64,000 nt of DNA from Spirochaetia bacterium (GTDB lineage Bacteria; Spirochaetota; Spirochaetia; UBA9216): NCBI GenBank assembly GCA_965140585.1, contig OZ223269.1, forward strand, positions 160,001 through 224,000. Reading direction: 5' to 3'. Shown piece by piece: positions 3,358 to 9,788 of this stretch (within the stretch, counting starts at the first letter, position 1; the number at the start of each line of letters is the position of its first letter). The position numbers were made by a program, and so were the translations under genes. The notes beneath the pieces are model-generated. The model saw only the letters and a program-made list of their open reading frames with translations, was not told the DNA's origin and searched no databases.

Positions 3358-4765
3358 CCATTAACCTGAACTTAAGCTCAGCTAGATTATCGGACAAAGA
3401 TACCTTATAAATGTGCGGATTTATTAATCTTTTGAAAGTTCTGTCCAGAAATTTAAGATCTTTTATCACTTTTTCCCGAATTTCAGGAAGTTCGGGATTT
3501 TTCAGGCATACTCTGCCGTTTTCAAGCCGCTTTTTGAGCATTGGCACAATTGACCCGTAATCAGCCACAGTCATCGATTTATACCGGTACATAGGGTGGT
3601 TAAAACGGTATTTTCTGTCATCCGAGATATCCTCTTCATGCAGACTTATCAGGTCGGCAATGGGGACATTTCGTTTATCATAAAACCGGTAAAGCTGTTT
3701 TATTCCGGGATTTGTCGTTTTTTCAGGATTATTTGAAAGCTTGATCGTCGGGATAAGTTCTCCATGCTGTTCTCTGGCAACAAGTTTATAGACACCGGTT
3801 AGAGATGAATCTTCGCCTCCGGTTACTAGCTGGGTTCCGACTCCCCATGAATTGATGGGGGCACCGTTTGTTACAAGTTCACGGACTATGTGTTCATTAA
3901 GATCATTTGAAACTGCGATTATTGCATCCTTCAGTCCGGCAGCATCAAGTTTTTCACGGACACGTTCACTAAGGTACTGAAGGTCTCCGCTGTCCAGGCG
4001 GACTCCGAAGTTTTTACCCTGATCCTGAAGTTCTTTTCCGACAATGATTGCGTTTTCTATACCGCTTCCTAAAGTGTCATAGGTATCAATCAGAAGAATT
4101 ACCTTATTAGGATACAGCTCAGCGTAGGCCCTGAAGGCTTCAAGTTCAGATTCGAATGCCATTACCCAGGAATGAGCCATGGTGCCGGTTACTGGAATTC
4201 CGTACTGTCTGCCGGCGAAGGTGTTTGATGTAGCAGTTGCTCCGCCTATAAAAGCCGCCCTTGCCGCTGATAATGAACCGTCCACACCCTGAGCGCGTCT
4301 GAGTCCGAATTCCATTATATTCCCTCCGCCGCTGGCGTTGTAAATCCTGGAACTCTTTGTTGCGATAAGGGTTTGAAAATTAACCGTGTTGAGAAGCATG
4401 CTTTCAATAAGCTGGGCCTCTATAAGGTTTGCCCGTACCGATATAAGCGGTTCATTGGGAAATACTATGGAGCCTTCATCAACTGCTGAAAGCTCACCTG
4501 TGAATCTGAAGTCCTTCAGAAAGTACAGAAAATCCTCGCCGAAGGTTCCCAGGGTTCTGAGGTATTCGATATCGTGTTTTGAGAATTGAAGTGAAGCAAG
4601 CCTGTCAACCAGATTACCAAGTCCGGCAAAAACCGAATACCCGCCCTGAAAAGGATTTTTTCTGAAAAACATCTCGAAGGCGACCTGCGGATTTCTATCC
4701 TGCAGGAAGTACCCCTGCATCATTGTCAGCTCATAAAGGTCGGTTAACAGGGCTGATTTATACAT
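3326..4765 (-). CDS. pncB: Nicotinate phosphoribosyltransferase
   Basis: LLTDLYELTM, EFGLRRAQG, GTMAHSW, LIDTYD, GVRLDSGD, GVYKL. Confidence 0.95.
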   Translation of the reverse strand: MYKSALLTDLYELTMMQGYFLQDRNPQVAFEMFFRKNPFQGGYSVFAGLGNLVDRLASLQFSKHDIEYLRTLGTFGEDFLYFLKDFRFTGELSAVDEGSIVFPNEPLISVRANLIEAQLIESMLLNTVNFQTLIATKSSRIYNASGGGNIMEFGLRRAQGVDGSLSAARAAFIGGATATSNTFAGRQYGIPVTGTMAHSWVMAFESELEAFRAYAELYPNKVILLIDTYDTLGSGIENAIIVGKELQDQGKNFGVRLDSGDLQYLSERVREKLDAAGLKDAIIAVSNDLNEHIVRELVTNGAPINSWGVGTQLVTGGEDSSLTGVYKLVAREQHGELIPTIKLSNNPEKTTNPGIKQLYRFYDKRNVPIADLISLHEEDISDDRKYRFNHPMYRYKSMTVADYGSIVPMLKKRLENGRVCLKNPELPEIREKVIKDLKFLDRTFKRLINPHIYKVSLSDNLAELKFRLMDEKTENNGGN

Positions 4766-6039
4766 TATTTCCTGCTTATCTTATCAAAACCGGTATAAGG
4801 CACAAGTTTTTCAGGAATTCTGATTGAACCGTCTTCCTGCTGGAAGTTTTCAAGGATGGCTACTATGGCTCTTGAGACGGCAATAGCTGTTCCGTTGAGC
4901 ATATGAACATGTTTGTTTTTGTCTCCGTCCCTGTAGCGTATACCGAGCCTTCTTGCCTGGTAATCGGTACAGTTTGAAGTACTTGTAACCTCTCCCCATT
5001 CTCCGTCTTCACCACGGCCGGGCATCCATGCTTCAAGGTCGTATTTCCTGTAGGCAGGTGCTCCAAGGTCTCCGGTACATGTATCTACAACCCGGAATGG
5101 AATCTCAAGGCTGCTGAATATTTCTTCTTCAATGGCTCGCAGTTCCTGATGGTACTGTTCTGATTCTTCAGGTTTACAGAAGATGAACATCTCAACCTTT
5201 GAAAACTGGTGTACCCTGTACAGTCCCTTTGAATACTGTCCGGCACCGCCTGCTTCACGTCTGAAACAGTGCGATAAACCCGCCATTTTAATGGGCATTT
5301 TTTCAGTATCGAGGATTTCGTTGGAGTAGTATCCTCCGAGTGTAATTTCGGCTGTACCGACAAGACAGGTCCCTGTTCCTTCAAGGTTATATATATTTGA
5401 TTCTGCACCTCTGGGGTTGAATCCGATACCTTCAAGGACTTCCTCTTTGGCTATATCCGGAGTGATAGTAGGTGTAAATCCTTTTTTAACAAGGATATCG
5501 AGTGCATACCTGCTGAGGGCAAGTTCAAGCATTACTGCTTCATTCTTAAGGTAGTAGAATTTAGGTCCGGTTACCTTGGCTGCAGTATCGAAATCGATAA
5601 GATCAAGTTCCGCACCTATTTCAACATGATCTTTCGGTTTGAAACTGAATTGCGGAACAGTTCCAACACGCTTGATTTCAAGGTTGTCCTTATCTTCCTT
5701 ACCAACCGGAGCATCAGGATGAGCCATGTTCGGAACTTTGGCTGCTTCAGTGTTAAGTTCAGTTTCAACAGAACCAAGCTCGCCTTCAACAGATGCAATC
5801 TGTTCCTTAAGCTTCTTACCTTCTTCAATAAGGGTATTCCGCTCATTCTGCTCAAGTTTGCCCTTCATCTTTTTAGCGTTTTCATTACGCTGCTGTCTGA
5901 GGGTGTCTGCCTCAATGATCAGCTGATTCCGGCGGTCATATAATTCAATAACGCGGTCAACATCCACTTCCATAAAGCGGTTTTTTACGTTCGCCTTTAC
6001 CGCGTCGGCGTTTTCTTTGATAAATCGTAAGTCCAGCAT
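4765..6039 (-). CDS. serS: Serine--tRNA ligase
   Basis: N-terminal coiled coil, GTAEIT, FRREAG, YRVHQFSKVE, SNCTDYQARR, LNGTAIA. Confidence 0.97.
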   Translation of the reverse strand: MLDLRFIKENADAVKANVKNRFMEVDVDRVIELYDRRNQLIIEADTLRQQRNENAKKMKGKLEQNERNTLIEEGKKLKEQIASVEGELGSVETELNTEAAKVPNMAHPDAPVGKEDKDNLEIKRVGTVPQFSFKPKDHVEIGAELDLIDFDTAAKVTGPKFYYLKNEAVMLELALSRYALDILVKKGFTPTITPDIAKEEVLEGIGFNPRGAESNIYNLEGTGTCLVGTAEITLGGYYSNEILDTEKMPIKMAGLSHCFRREAGGAGQYSKGLYRVHQFSKVEMFIFCKPEESEQYHQELRAIEEEIFSSLEIPFRVVDTCTGDLGAPAYRKYDLEAWMPGRGEDGEWGEVTSTSNCTDYQARRLGIRYRDGDKNKHVHMLNGTAIAVSRAIVAILENFQQEDGSIRIPEKLVPYTGFDKISRK

Positions 6040-6113: not shown

Positions 6114-6146
6114 TGTTGATAAAAGCAACAGTTGACAATAGCAACT
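6114..6146. promoter_or_regulatory. Tandem palindromic operator (WGTTG-N7-CAACW x2) overlapping a TTGACA -35 upstream of marR-hgcAB
   Basis: TGTTGATAAAAGCAACA (6114-6130) and AGTTGACAATAGCAACT (6130-6146); TTGACA at 6132-6137. Confidence 0.7.
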
Positions 6147-6167
6147 AAAAGTGCATATATGAAATCC

Positions 6168-6632
6168 ATGGAATCAAATTATGATATCAGAGCTTTCAGA
6201 CACGATTTGAGACGTCTTGAACGTTTTCTTGTAACAAATCTGAAGAGTAATTCAAGCTGCTGCGGTGTAACTTTCAACGAATGCCATATTCTTCTAAGGG
6301 TTGAAGAGGCAGGTGACATTACAATTTCGGATATTGTTGATTATCTTGGAGTAGATAAATCGGTGGTTTCAAGAACTGTTGATGCGCTTGTAAAGAAAAA
6401 CTGGCTTTTAAGAAATGAATCCATCTCTGACAGAAGAACAAGCACCGTTTCTCTTAGTGATGATGGAAAGATTTTTCTGAAAGGATTGAACAGTCAGTGT
6501 GACGATTTTTACATGCCGGTACTTGAAAATATCTCATCTGATAAATTAATTACTGTTATCGATGCCGTAGCAGCACTTTGTGATGCCTTTGAGTCTGCTG
6601 AAATCGACAGGAGCTGCACATGCCGGAAGTAA
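6168..6632 (+). CDS. MarR-family transcriptional regulator, Cys-rich (CCG...C, C-terminal CxC)
   Basis: wHTH ISDIVDYLGVDKSVVSRTVDALVKKNWLLR...SDRR..VSLSDDG; the ORF-track TTG start at 6132 is the -35 hexamer, so ATG 6168 (or 6159) is more likely. Confidence 0.88.
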   Translation: MESNYDIRAFRHDLRRLERFLVTNLKSNSSCCGVTFNECHILLRVEEAGDITISDIVDYLGVDKSVVSRTVDALVKKNWLLRNESISDRRTSTVSLSDDGKIFLKGLNSQCDDFYMPVLENISSDKLITVIDAVAALCDAFESAEIDRSCTCRK

Positions 6633-7615
6633 TACAAATCAGCAGTGATATAACTGCTGGAGATATCATCGACAGAATCAGATACCGTCTTGGCATCGGA
6701 AGAATGAAACTGAAGGTTGAGCCCGGGCTGTATTCTCTTAACAAGCCGGATGAGACCTCTCCTGTACTTGTGACTGCCAATCTTAAAGTTCCCCTTGATA
6801 TTCTACGGAAAAACTTAAAAGAGAGGGCTGCATGGATTCTTGTTCTTGATACGATGGGAGTCAACGTCTGGTGTGCTGCAGGAAAGGGCACCTTCGGAAC
6901 CGAAGAATTGATTCACAGGGTTCAGACAGCAGGATTGAAAGAGTTTGTGAAACATAAAAAACTTATAGTGCCTCAGCTCGGTGCACCTGGGGTGAAGGCT
7001 GTTGCCGTTCAGCGTACTACAGGCTTTCGGGTTTTCTTCGGGCCGGTTGCAGCAGCGGATCTGCCGGCTTACCTTGATAATAGTTTAAAGTGTGACGCGG
7101 ATATGCGCCTTAAAAAGTTCCCCTTATCAGAACGGGCTGAACTGGTACCGCTTCAGCTGATTCAGAGCTGGAAGATATTTCTCGGCGTTGCAGCACTTGT
7201 GCTGCTAAGAGAAGCTGCGTCAAAGGGGATTACAGGCATTAATCCTTCGGCAGTGATCATACCGGCACTGATAACAGTAATCTCAGGTGCCGTTCTTACT
7301 CCACTGCTGCTGCCTATTCTGCCCGGAAGAGCATTTTCTGTAAAAGGGGCAGTATCCGGATTTGTAGTCTCTCTGGCTGTTTTCGGTTTCCTTCCTTCAG
7401 AGCTGAGCATTCCTGCGATTATGCAGAATATTGTACTGGCTGCAGCCGGTTCATCGTTTATCGGGATGTGGTTTACAGGCTCATCAACCTTCACATCATT
7501 GTCAGGGGTTAAAAAGGAAATGAAAATTGCTGTGCCTGTTCAAATTACTTTTGCCGGACTGTCCCTGGTTCTGGGGATACTTCCGTCAATACTGCAGAAG
7601 GCGGGTATTTTATGA
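6620..7615 (+). CDS. hgcA: Mercury methylation corrinoid protein HgcA
   Basis: Cap-helix motif NVWCAAGK, plus PGLY, SPVLVTAN, PQLGAPGV, a C-terminal multi-TM region and FTGSSTFTSLSGVKKEM; RBS AGGAG; followed by hgcB. Confidence 0.97.
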   Translation: MPEVIQISSDITAGDIIDRIRYRLGIGRMKLKVEPGLYSLNKPDETSPVLVTANLKVPLDILRKNLKERAAWILVLDTMGVNVWCAAGKGTFGTEELIHRVQTAGLKEFVKHKKLIVPQLGAPGVKAVAVQRTTGFRVFFGPVAAADLPAYLDNSLKCDADMRLKKFPLSERAELVPLQLIQSWKIFLGVAALVLLREAASKGITGINPSAVIIPALITVISGAVLTPLLLPILPGRAFSVKGAVSGFVVSLAVFGFLPSELSIPAIMQNIVLAAAGSSFIGMWFTGSSTFTSLSGVKKEMKIAVPVQITFAGLSLVLGILPSILQKAGIL

Positions 7616-7920
7616 AATATTTAAGAAATACAGCAACTATCAAAATCGATTTGCAGAAGTGCACCGGATGTTTAATGTGCATAGAGGTTTGTCCTCATGC
7701 TGTTTTTACAGAGGATGGAAGAAAGGTACGTATCAATGATTCAGATTCCTGTATGGAATGCGGAGCCTGTGTTCTCAACTGTTCGTTCAAGGCTCTTTCG
7801 GTCGATAAGGGGGTCGGATGTGCCGAAGCAGTGTTAAACAGCATGATTAAAGGCGGCGAACCATCATGTGACTGCGGGCCATCCTGCAGCGGTGAAGGTG
7901 GAAAATCTTCCTGCTGCTGA
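7612..7920 (+). CDS. hgcB: Mercury methylation ferredoxin HgcB
   Basis: Two CX2CX2CX3C motifs (CTGCLMCIEVC, CMECGACVLNC), GVGCA, C-terminal CC; ATGA overlap with hgcA. Confidence 0.96.
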   Translation: MKYLRNTATIKIDLQKCTGCLMCIEVCPHAVFTEDGRKVRINDSDSCMECGACVLNCSFKALSVDKGVGCAEAVLNSMIKGGEPSCDCGPSCSGEGGKSSCC

Positions 7921-7922
7921 TA

Positions 7923-8363
7923 TTATTCAGCTGCAGGAAGGCTGCCTGGAAGCTGTTCGATCCAGGCCTTTATTTCATCTCTTACCCTTCGGTAATGTGA
8001 GATGGCTTCTTCTTCGGTTTTGGCAGTTTTAGCCAGGGCAGGCGGATCGTCAAAGCCTGCATGAACACGGGTTGTTTTTCCGGGAAAGTATGGGCAGGTC
8101 TCGGCTGCATGTCCGCAGACTGTTACAACATAGTCGAAACTCTGACCGGCTTCTATCATCTCATTAACATTCTTGCTTTTGTGGCCTGATATGTCGATTC
8201 CTGCCTCACCCATCACCTTTACAGCATTGGGGTTTAATCCGTGTGTTTCTATTCCGGCTGAATAGACTTCAAAAATATCTCCCTTAAGAGCTTTGCACCA
8301 GCCTTCGGCCATCTGGCTCCTGCAGGAATTTCCTGTACATAGAAAAAGGATGCTTTTCTTCAT
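7923..8363 (-). CDS. arsC: Arsenate reductase, thioredoxin-coupled (LMW-PTP fold)
   Basis: [14 protein letters not shown]-loop, resolving pair [15 protein letters not shown]. Confidence 0.9.
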
Positions 8364-8955: not shown

Positions 8956-8981
8956 GCAGCGGTAAAAACTTGGAGTTAACC

Positions 8982-9788
8982 ATGTCGGAAAAAATGCACA
9001 GTCTCAAAGGCAGAATTGCTGTAGTCACAGGAGGTGCGGTTAACATCGGCAGAGCCGTAAGCAGTAAGCTTGCATATTCCGGAGCATCCGTGGCTGTGGT
9101 ATATAATTCGAGTGCACAGTCTGCTGATAAGCTGGTATCCGAACTGAAGGCCGGAGGCTGTACTGCAGAAGCTTTTAAAGCCGATATAAGCAATGAAGTT
9201 CAGGTGGTAAAGCTGTTTGAAAAGATAAGCGATGATCCTGATTTCGGCAGCGTTGATATACTTGTGAATAATTCCGGGGTTCTGAGTGTTTTGCCCCAGG
9301 AAGAATTAAGTGCAGAGGAGTGGGACAGGGTTTTTGCGGTAAATACACGGGGGTTGTTTCTATGCTCACGTGAAGCTGCCAGGCTTATGAAAATCAATAA
9401 CAGAACAAACTCTCCTCAGAGAGGTTCAATTATTAATATTGCGAGTATCAACGCGCTTCATCCCGGATTCGGTAATACTGCTCATTATGATGCCGCAAAG
9501 GGCGCTGTAGCTGCTTACACAGCATCTCTGGCTGCCGAGCTGGGCCCTTTCGGTATCAGGGTTAATGCTGTGGCTCCGGGGCTTGTTGAATCGGAGACTC
9601 TGAGAGCGGGGGCTCCGGAACTCGCAGAAATGGTTGAAGTCCGTAATCCTCTCAAATGTGCTGACGAAAGTTCCCGGCTGGTGACCGGCGAAGATATTGC
9701 CTCAACAGTGCTGTTTCTGGCCTCCGAAGCTTCTGCAAGCATTACAGGAGGCATTATTACAGTTGACCGGGGTTATCTGCTAAGTTGA
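8982..9788 (+). CDS. Short-chain dehydrogenase/reductase (FabG-like)
   Basis: VTGGAVNIG, LVNNSG, catalytic YDAAK, NAVAPG; GGAG RBS before ATG 8982. Confidence 0.9.
   Translation: MSEKMHSLKGRIAVVTGGAVNIGRAVSSKLAYSGASVAVVYNSSAQSADKLVSELKAGGCTAEAFKADISNEVQVVKLFEKISDDPDFGSVDILVNNSGVLSVLPQEELSAEEWDRVFAVNTRGLFLCSREAARLMKINNRTNSPQRGSIINIASINALHPGFGNTAHYDAAKGAVAAYTASLAAELGPFGIRVNAVAPGLVESETLRAGAPELAEMVEVRNPLKCADESSRLVTGEDIASTVLFLASEASASITGGIITVDRGYLLS

Follow-up and report, generated by a model that had tools for sequence, protein, structure and literature searches.

The regulatory gene marR, which encodes a cysteine-bearing MarR protein, heads the mercury-methylation genes hgcA and hgcB in the window, by which we mean the whole 64-kb stretch of DNA analysed here (contig C6:160001-224000 of the 4.85-Mb Spirochaetia genome G000, hereafter the source genome). 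The analyses led us to conclude that marR-hgcA-hgcB is a real, conserved regulatory module in which a sensor of the MarR_ars type has been recruited to hgcAB, and that this module is not peculiar to the source genome. We propose, with a probability of roughly 0.55, that the protein is an autorepressor of the marR-hgcAB operon that is released by trivalent metalloids. The part of this proposal that concerns regulator, operator and operon is probable, because several independent comparative results bear on it. We lean only slightly towards trivalent arsenic or antimony, possibly methylarsenite, as the ligand, because that assignment rests on homology and gene neighbourhood.

The marR-hgcA-hgcB genes and the regulator

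The marR gene (positions 6168..6632 of the window, + strand) encodes a MarR_ars-like regulator of 154 amino acids, assigned from its open reading frame, Pfam matches, alignments, an AlphaFold2 model and a tree. It is followed by hgcA (6620..7615, + strand), encoding the corrinoid protein of mercury methylation (331 amino acids), and hgcB (7612..7920, + strand), encoding a 2x[4Fe-4S] ferredoxin of 102 amino acids with a C-terminal CC. HgcA scored 381.1 bits against NF040863 (cut-off 275) and HgcB 112.2 bits against NF040864 (cut-off 99), and the HgcA translation contains NVWCAAGK, an instance of N(V/I)WCA(A/G)GK, which we take to be the HgcA cap-helix motif. The hgcA ATG at 6620 gives a 13-nucleotide (nt) overlap with marR (6620-6632), and the ribosome-binding site of hgcA, AGGAG (6609..6613, + strand), can be read directly within the marR coding sequence, 6 nt 5' of that ATG. 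The stop of hgcA and the start of hgcB overlap as ATGA (7612-7615). A preliminary description of the locus, made from the DNA letters, had reported these overlaps, the ribosome-binding site and the cysteine motifs given below; on re-reading the window, all its statements on the sequence of the three genes were verified and the coordinates all matched.

Two in-frame alternative starts of marR lie 5' of ATG 6168, namely ATG 6159 and TTG 6132. ATG 6168 is the start common to a relative with 86% identity, which has ATT in place of 6159; a database protein with 98% identity (P0003) is annotated as starting at ATG 6159.

The regulator scored 49.7 bits against PF01047 (cut-off 24.6) and 49.8 bits against PF12802 (MarR_2; cut-off 27). 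An ArsR identity was ruled out, there being no match to HTH_5 (PF01022) at E <= 0.01, and the regulator is thus of the MarR type and not an ArsR, as had been described. Its closest solved structures are MarR proteins throughout (best 3e6m, E 4e-14); they are generic MarR proteins, in none of which the cysteine motif is aligned. Database clusters of its relatives are named 'MarR family transcriptional regulator' or left blank. The AlphaFold2 monomer model, computed from a 150-row alignment, displays a confident MarR fold (predicted local distance difference test score 92.5) with the MarR topology of six helices (residues 7-28, 36-48, 53-60, 64-76, 98-120, and 124-148) and two strands (80-84 and 92-96). 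A profile search found only one member of the family in the source genome (234.6 bits), the next MarR scoring 50.5 bits.

Cysteine residues and kinship with MarR_ars

The protein contains seven cysteines: C31, C32, and C39 in SSCCGVTFNEC, C111 in SQCDD, C139 in ALCD, and C150 and C152 in SCTC. Their codons include 6258-6263 (C31/C32), 6282-6287 (C39-H40), 6615-6617 (C150), and 6621-6623 (C152). C31, C32, C39, and H40 are invariant in a seven-row alignment (A1), and conservation of C31, Q38, C39, and H40 is 90% or higher across 150 aligned representatives, a value with some bias since the profile used to gather the 150 contains these columns. In a motif-blind sample of Spirochaetota hgcA loci, the CC pair, C-[H/N], and a C-terminal cysteine were found in all 14 high-scoring upstream MarRs. 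The preliminary description had regarded the protein as a cysteine-rich sensor; this stands for C31, C32, C39, and the C-terminal cysteine. C111 and C139 were ruled out as parts of the sensor, being unconserved in A1, in which C139 is common only to the 86% identical relative and C111 only to that relative and P0004.

The model places C31/C32 in the loop that joins helices alpha1 and alpha2; alpha2 has C39/H40 in its opening turn, and C150/C152 come just past the last helix. Because the interface of MarR dimers is built from the first and last helices, a sensor site formed from the alpha1-alpha2 loop plus the C-terminal tail is plausible in structural terms.

The best precedent is AdMarR_ars of Achromobacter deleyi As-55, which, according to the accessible part of Yu et al. 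2021 (bioRxiv 10.1101/2021.08.12.456183), acts as a repressor of both arsV and its own gene, depends on Cys36, Cys37, and Cys157, and leaves the two promoters in response to As(III)/Sb(III). The same source places MarR_ars relatives before arsV or arsN and reports that the representative shows no response to As(V)/Sb(V). We compared the window MarR with the Achromobacter marplatensis ortholog of AdMarR_ars (L212), which has 163 amino acids and carries C36, C37, C45, and C157. In the alignment (A4), C36/C37 are one column off C31/C32, C45 coincides with C39, and C157 coincides with C150. In both proteins the CC pair stands 7-8 residues before a conserved (Q/E)C, the window MarR having one residue fewer between the pair and the helix-2 cysteine. 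The window MarR thus shares with AdMarR_ars the MarR fold, the cysteine pair between alpha1 and alpha2, and the C-terminal cysteine (C31/C32/C150 corresponding to Cys36/Cys37/Cys157), that is, both the vicinal N-terminal pair and the C-terminal cysteine by which MarR_ars is recognized. A third mark of MarR_ars is a position beside ars genes; here the headed gene is hgcA, and an arsC-like gene nearby, described below, scores under the cut-off of TIGR02691. Among the differences, hgcAB takes the place of arsV, arsN, or arsP as the target, and helix 2 carries a C-H pair where AdMarR has C-Y.

Linkage of the regulator to hgcA

A search of genome contigs with the MarR peptide only found five relatives (one with 86% and four with 35-37% identity), and hgcA-hgcB came next downstream in all five. 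A second scan yielded 24 loci, with hgcA-hgcB in 18 of the 21 that had room downstream. As an hgcA-blind test, the same 401 Spirochaetota genomes were searched separately with the HgcA model and the MarR profile. An hgcA match was found in 87 genomes, 78 of them above the cut-off, and the MarR family (E <= 1e-20) in 28, all within the 87; the family was found in none of the 314 genomes that lacked an hgcA match, although the first-pass search scored part of the candidates and some family members may be missed. In 27 of the 28 genomes, MarR adjoins hgcA on the same contig, and hence the adjacency of marR and hgcA is far beyond chance. These 27 correspond to about a third of the 78 hgcA-positive genomes. 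In the exceptional genome, MarR (G228:C18:172227-172649) is not beside hgcA, and the HgcA-like match (176 bits, below the cut-off) is on another contig. Among the matches listed in the motif scan described below, the hgcA start overlaps the marR stop or lies within 30 nt of it in 37 of 41 hgcA-linked loci.

A census centred on hgcA covered Spirochaetota in full and the best 30 loci of one deltaproteobacterial phylum. In its motif-blind Spirochaetota sample, a MarR-like gene was located upstream in 17 of 30 hgcA loci, 3 of the 17 being more distant cysteine-bearing MarRs. The other 13 loci included three with an ArsR and three with an Acr3-like SBF transporter upstream; arsenic-type neighbours thus recur at hgcA loci without MarR (L299, L307, L311, L308, L310, and L313). 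The survey of hgcA neighbourhoods that the preliminary description had called for therefore ties the MarR to hgcAB across phyla and not in the source genome alone. Beyond Spirochaetota, the family occurs in Bacillota, Acidobacteriota, Verrucomicrobiota, Bacteroidota, and deltaproteobacterial lineages, and the loci include Opitutales, Acidobacteriota, and metagenome-assembled genomes (MAGs) from fens.

A distant cysteine-rich MarR clade was also observed upstream of hgcA in the phylum of G402 (L314, L315, L319, L323, L329, L331, L332, and L333) and in L302. Its members carry an N-terminal RCC(C)QDEAFCEGVTF and a C-terminal CSCC-like motif, and the in-frame DNA before their ATG reads L-Y-x-T-T, a dyad TTGTAT..TACAAC abutting the start codon. 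In that phylum, a MarR-like gene was found upstream in 12 of 30 hgcA loci, including the weak matches L336, L343, and L320.

Operator-like dyads and promoter

Two operator-like dyads precede marR: GTTGATAAAAGCAAC (GTTG-N7-CAAC; 6115..6129), located 143 nt 5' of the C31 codon, and GTTGACAATAGCAAC (6131..6145), which overlaps the -35-like hexamer TTGACA (6132-6137). A candidate -10 element, TATATG (6156..6161, + strand), was read by eye 18 nt after TTGACA. Counts of inverted repeats upstream of family genes gave a consensus near GTTGTAnnnTACAAC, again GTTG-N7-CAAC. The exact dyad was present within 200 nt upstream in 16 of 30 ars-linked and 10 of 39 hgcA-linked loci, and control DNA of twice the length from the same hgcA- and ars-linked loci contained none. 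The corresponding number for the AdMarR clade, gathered with a motif from the primers of Yu et al. (70 of 80 fetched loci were family members), was 62 of 66 loci versus one in the control, many of these loci being related Pseudomonas genomes and hence non-independent. The dyad mostly lies 127-147 nt 5' of the CC codon, and this position is common to the hgcA-linked, ars-linked, and AdMarR-clade loci; the window MarR thus resembles the AdMarR_ars clade in both the dyad and its upstream distance. The earlier claim of kinship to a cysteine-containing MarR subfamily of ars genes is borne out by the shared cysteine pair, the C-terminal cysteine, and this upstream dyad.

The two dyads are the only GTTG-N7-CAAC sites in the window. 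The whole genome contains 56 such sites, compared with about 74 expected by chance, and the window pair is the only one with its members <=40 nt apart. A wider regulon was considered and set aside: there is no second tandem dyad genome-wide, and the 56 single sites against about 74 by chance are uninformative either way.

The arrangement of dyads and promoter-like elements recurs in L002 and L105, in which tandem dyads are followed by TATAT[GT] 17-18 nt further and by ATG about 7 nt after that; the element of L002 is TATATT, at the position matching TATATG. With these elements, the marR transcript would begin at ATG 6168 or slightly 5' of it, and the recurrence suggests that in this lineage of spirochaetes the marR message is leaderless or nearly so. 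In Bacillota, the genes of the family have a clear GGAGG instead. A consensus promoter scan found no sigma-70-like match inside marR on the + strand.

Ars-linked relatives and phylogeny

A profile built from seven members was searched against 1.84 billion representatives. At E <= 1e-30 it matched 135 clusters, and the looser threshold of E <= 1e-10 brought the number to 2057. CCG[VILMA][TS]xxxCH is present in 96 of the best 149 clusters. The back-translated cysteine motif was then scanned over genome contigs and produced at least 120 matches; 80 loci were fetched, comprising 76 MarR genes and 4 chance matches. Being selected by the motif, the 76 genes are uninformative on its conservation and informative on their neighbours. 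Among the matches listed, hgcA lies downstream on the same strand in 41 of the 76, an arsM-like methyltransferase in 24, a GNAT acetyltransferase in 6, and an MFS transporter in 1; the remaining loci have hgcAB upstream (1), hgcB-like only (1), or no room downstream (2). The locus with hgcAB upstream (L051) has a 452-residue HgcA-like open reading frame and hgcB before the MarR, and that with hgcB only (L095) has a 299-residue open reading frame ending in MarR, followed by an hgcB-like ferredoxin.

The ars context of these relatives was supported by several neighbours. The one arsM-like open reading frame tested (L027) scored 303 bits against NF008823 (cut-off 263). One further downstream open reading frame, scanned in three of the GNAT loci, was ArsD, ArsR, and without a Pfam match, respectively. 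In a metal island of a Bacillota MAG (L018:1159-6264), a P-type ATPase and a CsoR/RicR-like repressor stand upstream of the MarR_ars-like gene, which is followed by an S-adenosylmethionine (SAM) methyltransferase with a cysteine-rich tail, ArsR, and Acr3 (455.7 bits). Plasmid relatives (25-33% identity) are found inside annotated ars islands, with ArsN1/ArsN2 or GNAT, ArsR, Acr3, ArsC, ArsD, and ArsA as neighbours. As with MarR_ars, then, the regulator stands immediately upstream of its presumed target and has relatives in ars islands.

A tree of 105 rows was constructed, in which duplicates identical in sequence were entered once, and five paralogous MarRs of the source genome and proteins shorter than 120 amino acids (L030, L041, and L070) were omitted. 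The paralogous MarRs had been tried as an outgroup and were dropped, as they formed very long branches and one was misplaced in the ingroup. The window MarR belongs to a set of 49 rows (UFBoot, ultrafast bootstrap, 98; SH-aLRT, Shimodaira-Hasegawa-like approximate likelihood ratio test, 92). Of these, 45 are hgcA-linked; the other four are L081 (arsM), L022 (other), L008 (no room), and L095 (hgcB only). A larger group encloses this set together with arsM- and ArsN-like-linked members, the deep branches and the root being weakly supported. A second hgcA-linked group sits among Bacillota arsM-linked members. One clade with 100/100 support combines four hgcA-linked and two arsM-linked rows, and the hgcA-linked L054 is paired with the arsM-linked L027 (support 99/86). 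The hgcA label changes 10 times on the tree, with starred branches forcing at least 8 changes, and hgcA-linked rows formed a single group in none of 200 bootstrap trees. On these counts, the target gene was repeatedly exchanged between arsM and hgcAB.

A tree with ars-associated MarRs had also been called for in the preliminary description. The expected relationship stood in that the closest relatives outside hgcAB are followed by arsM, by ArsN-like genes, and by other ars genes; the AdMarR clade forms a 100/100 branch of its own. With the A1 profile, AdMarR-clade proteins scored 39-63 bits, compared with 50.5 for the best other MarR of the source genome; since these ranges overlap, the scores alone do not separate the clade from other MarRs.

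Previously described regulators before hgcAB

In Pseudodesulfovibrio mercurii ND132, ArsR2, a regulator of the ArsR/SmtB type, regulates hgcAB, and arsenic-responsive transcription of hgcAB has been reported, according to the accessible text of Gionfriddo et al. (bioRxiv 10.1101/2022.10.17.512643). That text finds homologues of ArsR2 solely within hgc+ Desulfovibrionaceae among the genomes searched. Both ArsR2 and the window MarR are cysteine-bearing metalloregulators or candidates for such, encoded just upstream of hgcAB; unlike the window MarR, ArsR2 belongs to the PF01022 family, and its cysteines are C47, C49, C86, and C88 (10.1101/2022.10.17.512643). As control of hgcAB by an ArsR-type protein is published for ND132, the wording 'convergent coupling' in the preliminary description was fair.

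A conserved, unnamed regulator before hgcAB was reported in 112 genomes (McDaniel et al. 2020, PMC7438021), and MarR genes upstream of hgcA were mentioned in one sentence for two isolates, a Dethiobacter and a Geobacter (Zhang et al. 2023, PMC10349881). The regulators of these papers were found in Acidobacteria, Verrucomicrobia (Opitutae), and Deltaproteobacteria, permafrost MAGs among them, and they share with the window MarR the position before hgcAB. The accessible parts of PMC7438021 and PMC10349881 name no cysteine residues, operator, or kinship to MarR_ars; the regulator of McDaniel et al. may be the MarR family described here. Our literature search found nothing joining MarR_ars with hgcAB, a MarR before hgcA appearing only as the sentence in PMC10349881, and nothing relevant linking MarR with arsM or arsenite methyltransferase.

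Proposed mechanism and alternatives

We propose that a MarR dimer would bind the two GTTG-N7-CAAC dyads at 6115-6145. Since the only promoter in evidence has its -35 region covered by these dyads, binding would repress a single marR-hgcA-hgcB transcript, on which translation of hgcA and hgcB would be coupled to the preceding gene through the 13-nt and 4-nt overlaps. As(III) or Sb(III), possibly methylarsenite, would be bound by the thiolates of C31/C32 and C150/C152, perhaps with C39/H40, and the metalloid-bound repressor would leave the DNA, so that hgcAB expression would rise.

Several results weigh against this proposal. The exact dyad is present within 200 nt upstream in only 10 of 39 hgcA-linked loci. 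The consensus promoter scan did not call TTGACA/TATATG, its rule requiring T at position 6 of the -10 element so that TATATG is unlisted, and the -10 element is weak. The hgcA:arsM ratio of 41:24 was drawn, among the matches listed, from loci picked by the cysteine motif. L212 and the window MarR display 23% identity over 115 residues (E 4e-10), and the AdMarR clade forms a separate 100/100 branch; the ligand specificity of the window MarR may therefore differ from that of AdMarR_ars. The near-invariant C39-H40 lies outside the three residues tested in the accessible account of Yu et al. and hints that coordination here may differ from that in AdMarR_ars or involve further ligands. Finally, with the queries used, no Acr3 match was found in the source genome and an arsenic-transporter query matched it weakly (22% identity), so that the classical arsenic-resistance context is thin. 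Room for the sensing of redox state or of Hg(II) remains, given that C39-H40 is conserved, that AdMarR_ars is distant, and that a classical ars operon is lacking in the source genome.

The cysteines may, first, constitute a redox or thiol-stress switch, or hold a metal or Fe-S centre with a structural or sensory function, by which hgcAB would be tuned to the redox state. Four or five conserved cysteines and a histidine would suit such a role, as would the nature of HgcAB, oxygen-sensitive corrinoid and Fe-S proteins whose hosts are anaerobes as judged from their hgcAB content, and E. coli MarR is reported to be switched by Cu(II)-driven cysteine oxidation (10.1101/2021.08.12.456183). However, the same residue pattern occurs in ars regulators, of which the characterized one is reported to sense As(III)/Sb(III) and not As(V)/Sb(V) (10.1101/2021.08.12.456183). 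The neighbourhoods examined contain no oxidative-stress genes either, and we consider a redox switch rather unlikely.

Alternatively, with the same repressor and operon, the ligand may be Hg(II), methylmercury, or some other soft metal ion, and hgcAB would then respond to the substrate or the product of its own proteins. Mercury is the element on which the target genes act, thiolate sites bind Hg(II) avidly, and the conserved C39-H40 sets the hgcAB-linked group apart from AdMarR_ars. Nevertheless, the genes that follow the close CCG..CH relatives are arsM, ArsN-like, and other ars genes and not mer genes, and the 100/100 clade with both hgcA- and arsM-linked members argues for one common signal; a mercury ligand is accordingly improbable in our estimation.

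A further reading is that the MarR regulates only itself or some other target; hgcAB would then have signals of its own for constitutive expression, and its position beside marR would reflect a co-inherited cassette. In favour of this, the MarR is missing beside hgcA in 51 of the 78 hgcA-positive genomes of Spirochaetota, so that hgcAB is workable alone, and hgcA transcripts were reportedly not detected in some otherwise transcriptionally active groups (McDaniel et al., PMC7438021). The stop/start overlap, the ribosome-binding site within marR with no promoter-like site there in the consensus scan, the short spacing in 37 of 41 listed loci, the absence of the family from the 314 searched genomes that lack an hgcA match, and the tandem operator-like pair that is the sole one in the genome all speak against it, and we consider this reading very unlikely.

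Control by metalloids, as we propose, also bears on the role of HgcAB itself. Since the same MarR and operator precede either arsM or hgcAB, with both in the mixed 100/100 clade, HgcAB might natively be a cobalamin-dependent module for methylation or detoxification of a metalloid (As or Sb), like ArsM, with mercury methylation as a side reaction of a system that arsenic induces; we regard this as doubtful. How hgcAB is controlled and what purpose HgcAB serves are presented as open questions of mercury biogeochemistry in the accessible parts of two studies (PMC10349881; 10.1101/2022.10.17.512643). The window MarR and its family show that, besides ArsR, another and unrelated family of regulators of the arsenic-sensing type has been recruited to hgcAB. 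That two independent arsenic-type sensors converge on hgcAB is strongly suggestive, and methylmercury output may depend on exposure to As or Sb. The 154-residue protein, its 31-bp putative operator, and three to five cysteines offer a testable handle.

Neighbouring genes

Downstream of hgcB and convergent with it, separated by 2 nt, lies a gene of the low-molecular-weight phosphatase family (7923..8363, - strand; PF01451, 73.4 bits) resembling thioredoxin-type arsenate reductases. Its score against TIGR02691 (163.3 bits) is under the equivalog cut-off of 174.3, and because this cut-off was missed and the LMWPc domain is present, we name the gene only 'arsC-like'. A convergent arsC-like gene is likewise located 3' of hgcB in L002 and L014, and this neighbour counts in favour of the proposed control by metalloids. 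Beyond it lie a DUF985 cupin (PF06172; 8476-8955) and a short-chain dehydrogenase (8970-9788), the cupin beside arsC being kept in the close relative L002. On the other side, serS (4765-6039) diverges upstream of marR.

Outside the window, the source genome carries another MarR-like gene next to a methyltransferase gene (C7:348969-350047). This MarR-like protein has 135 amino acids and no cysteine, and its gene overlaps that of an ArsM-like SAM methyltransferase. The latter protein is cysteine-rich at both its N- and C-termini and displays 41% identity to the ArsM of L027 over 181 residues.

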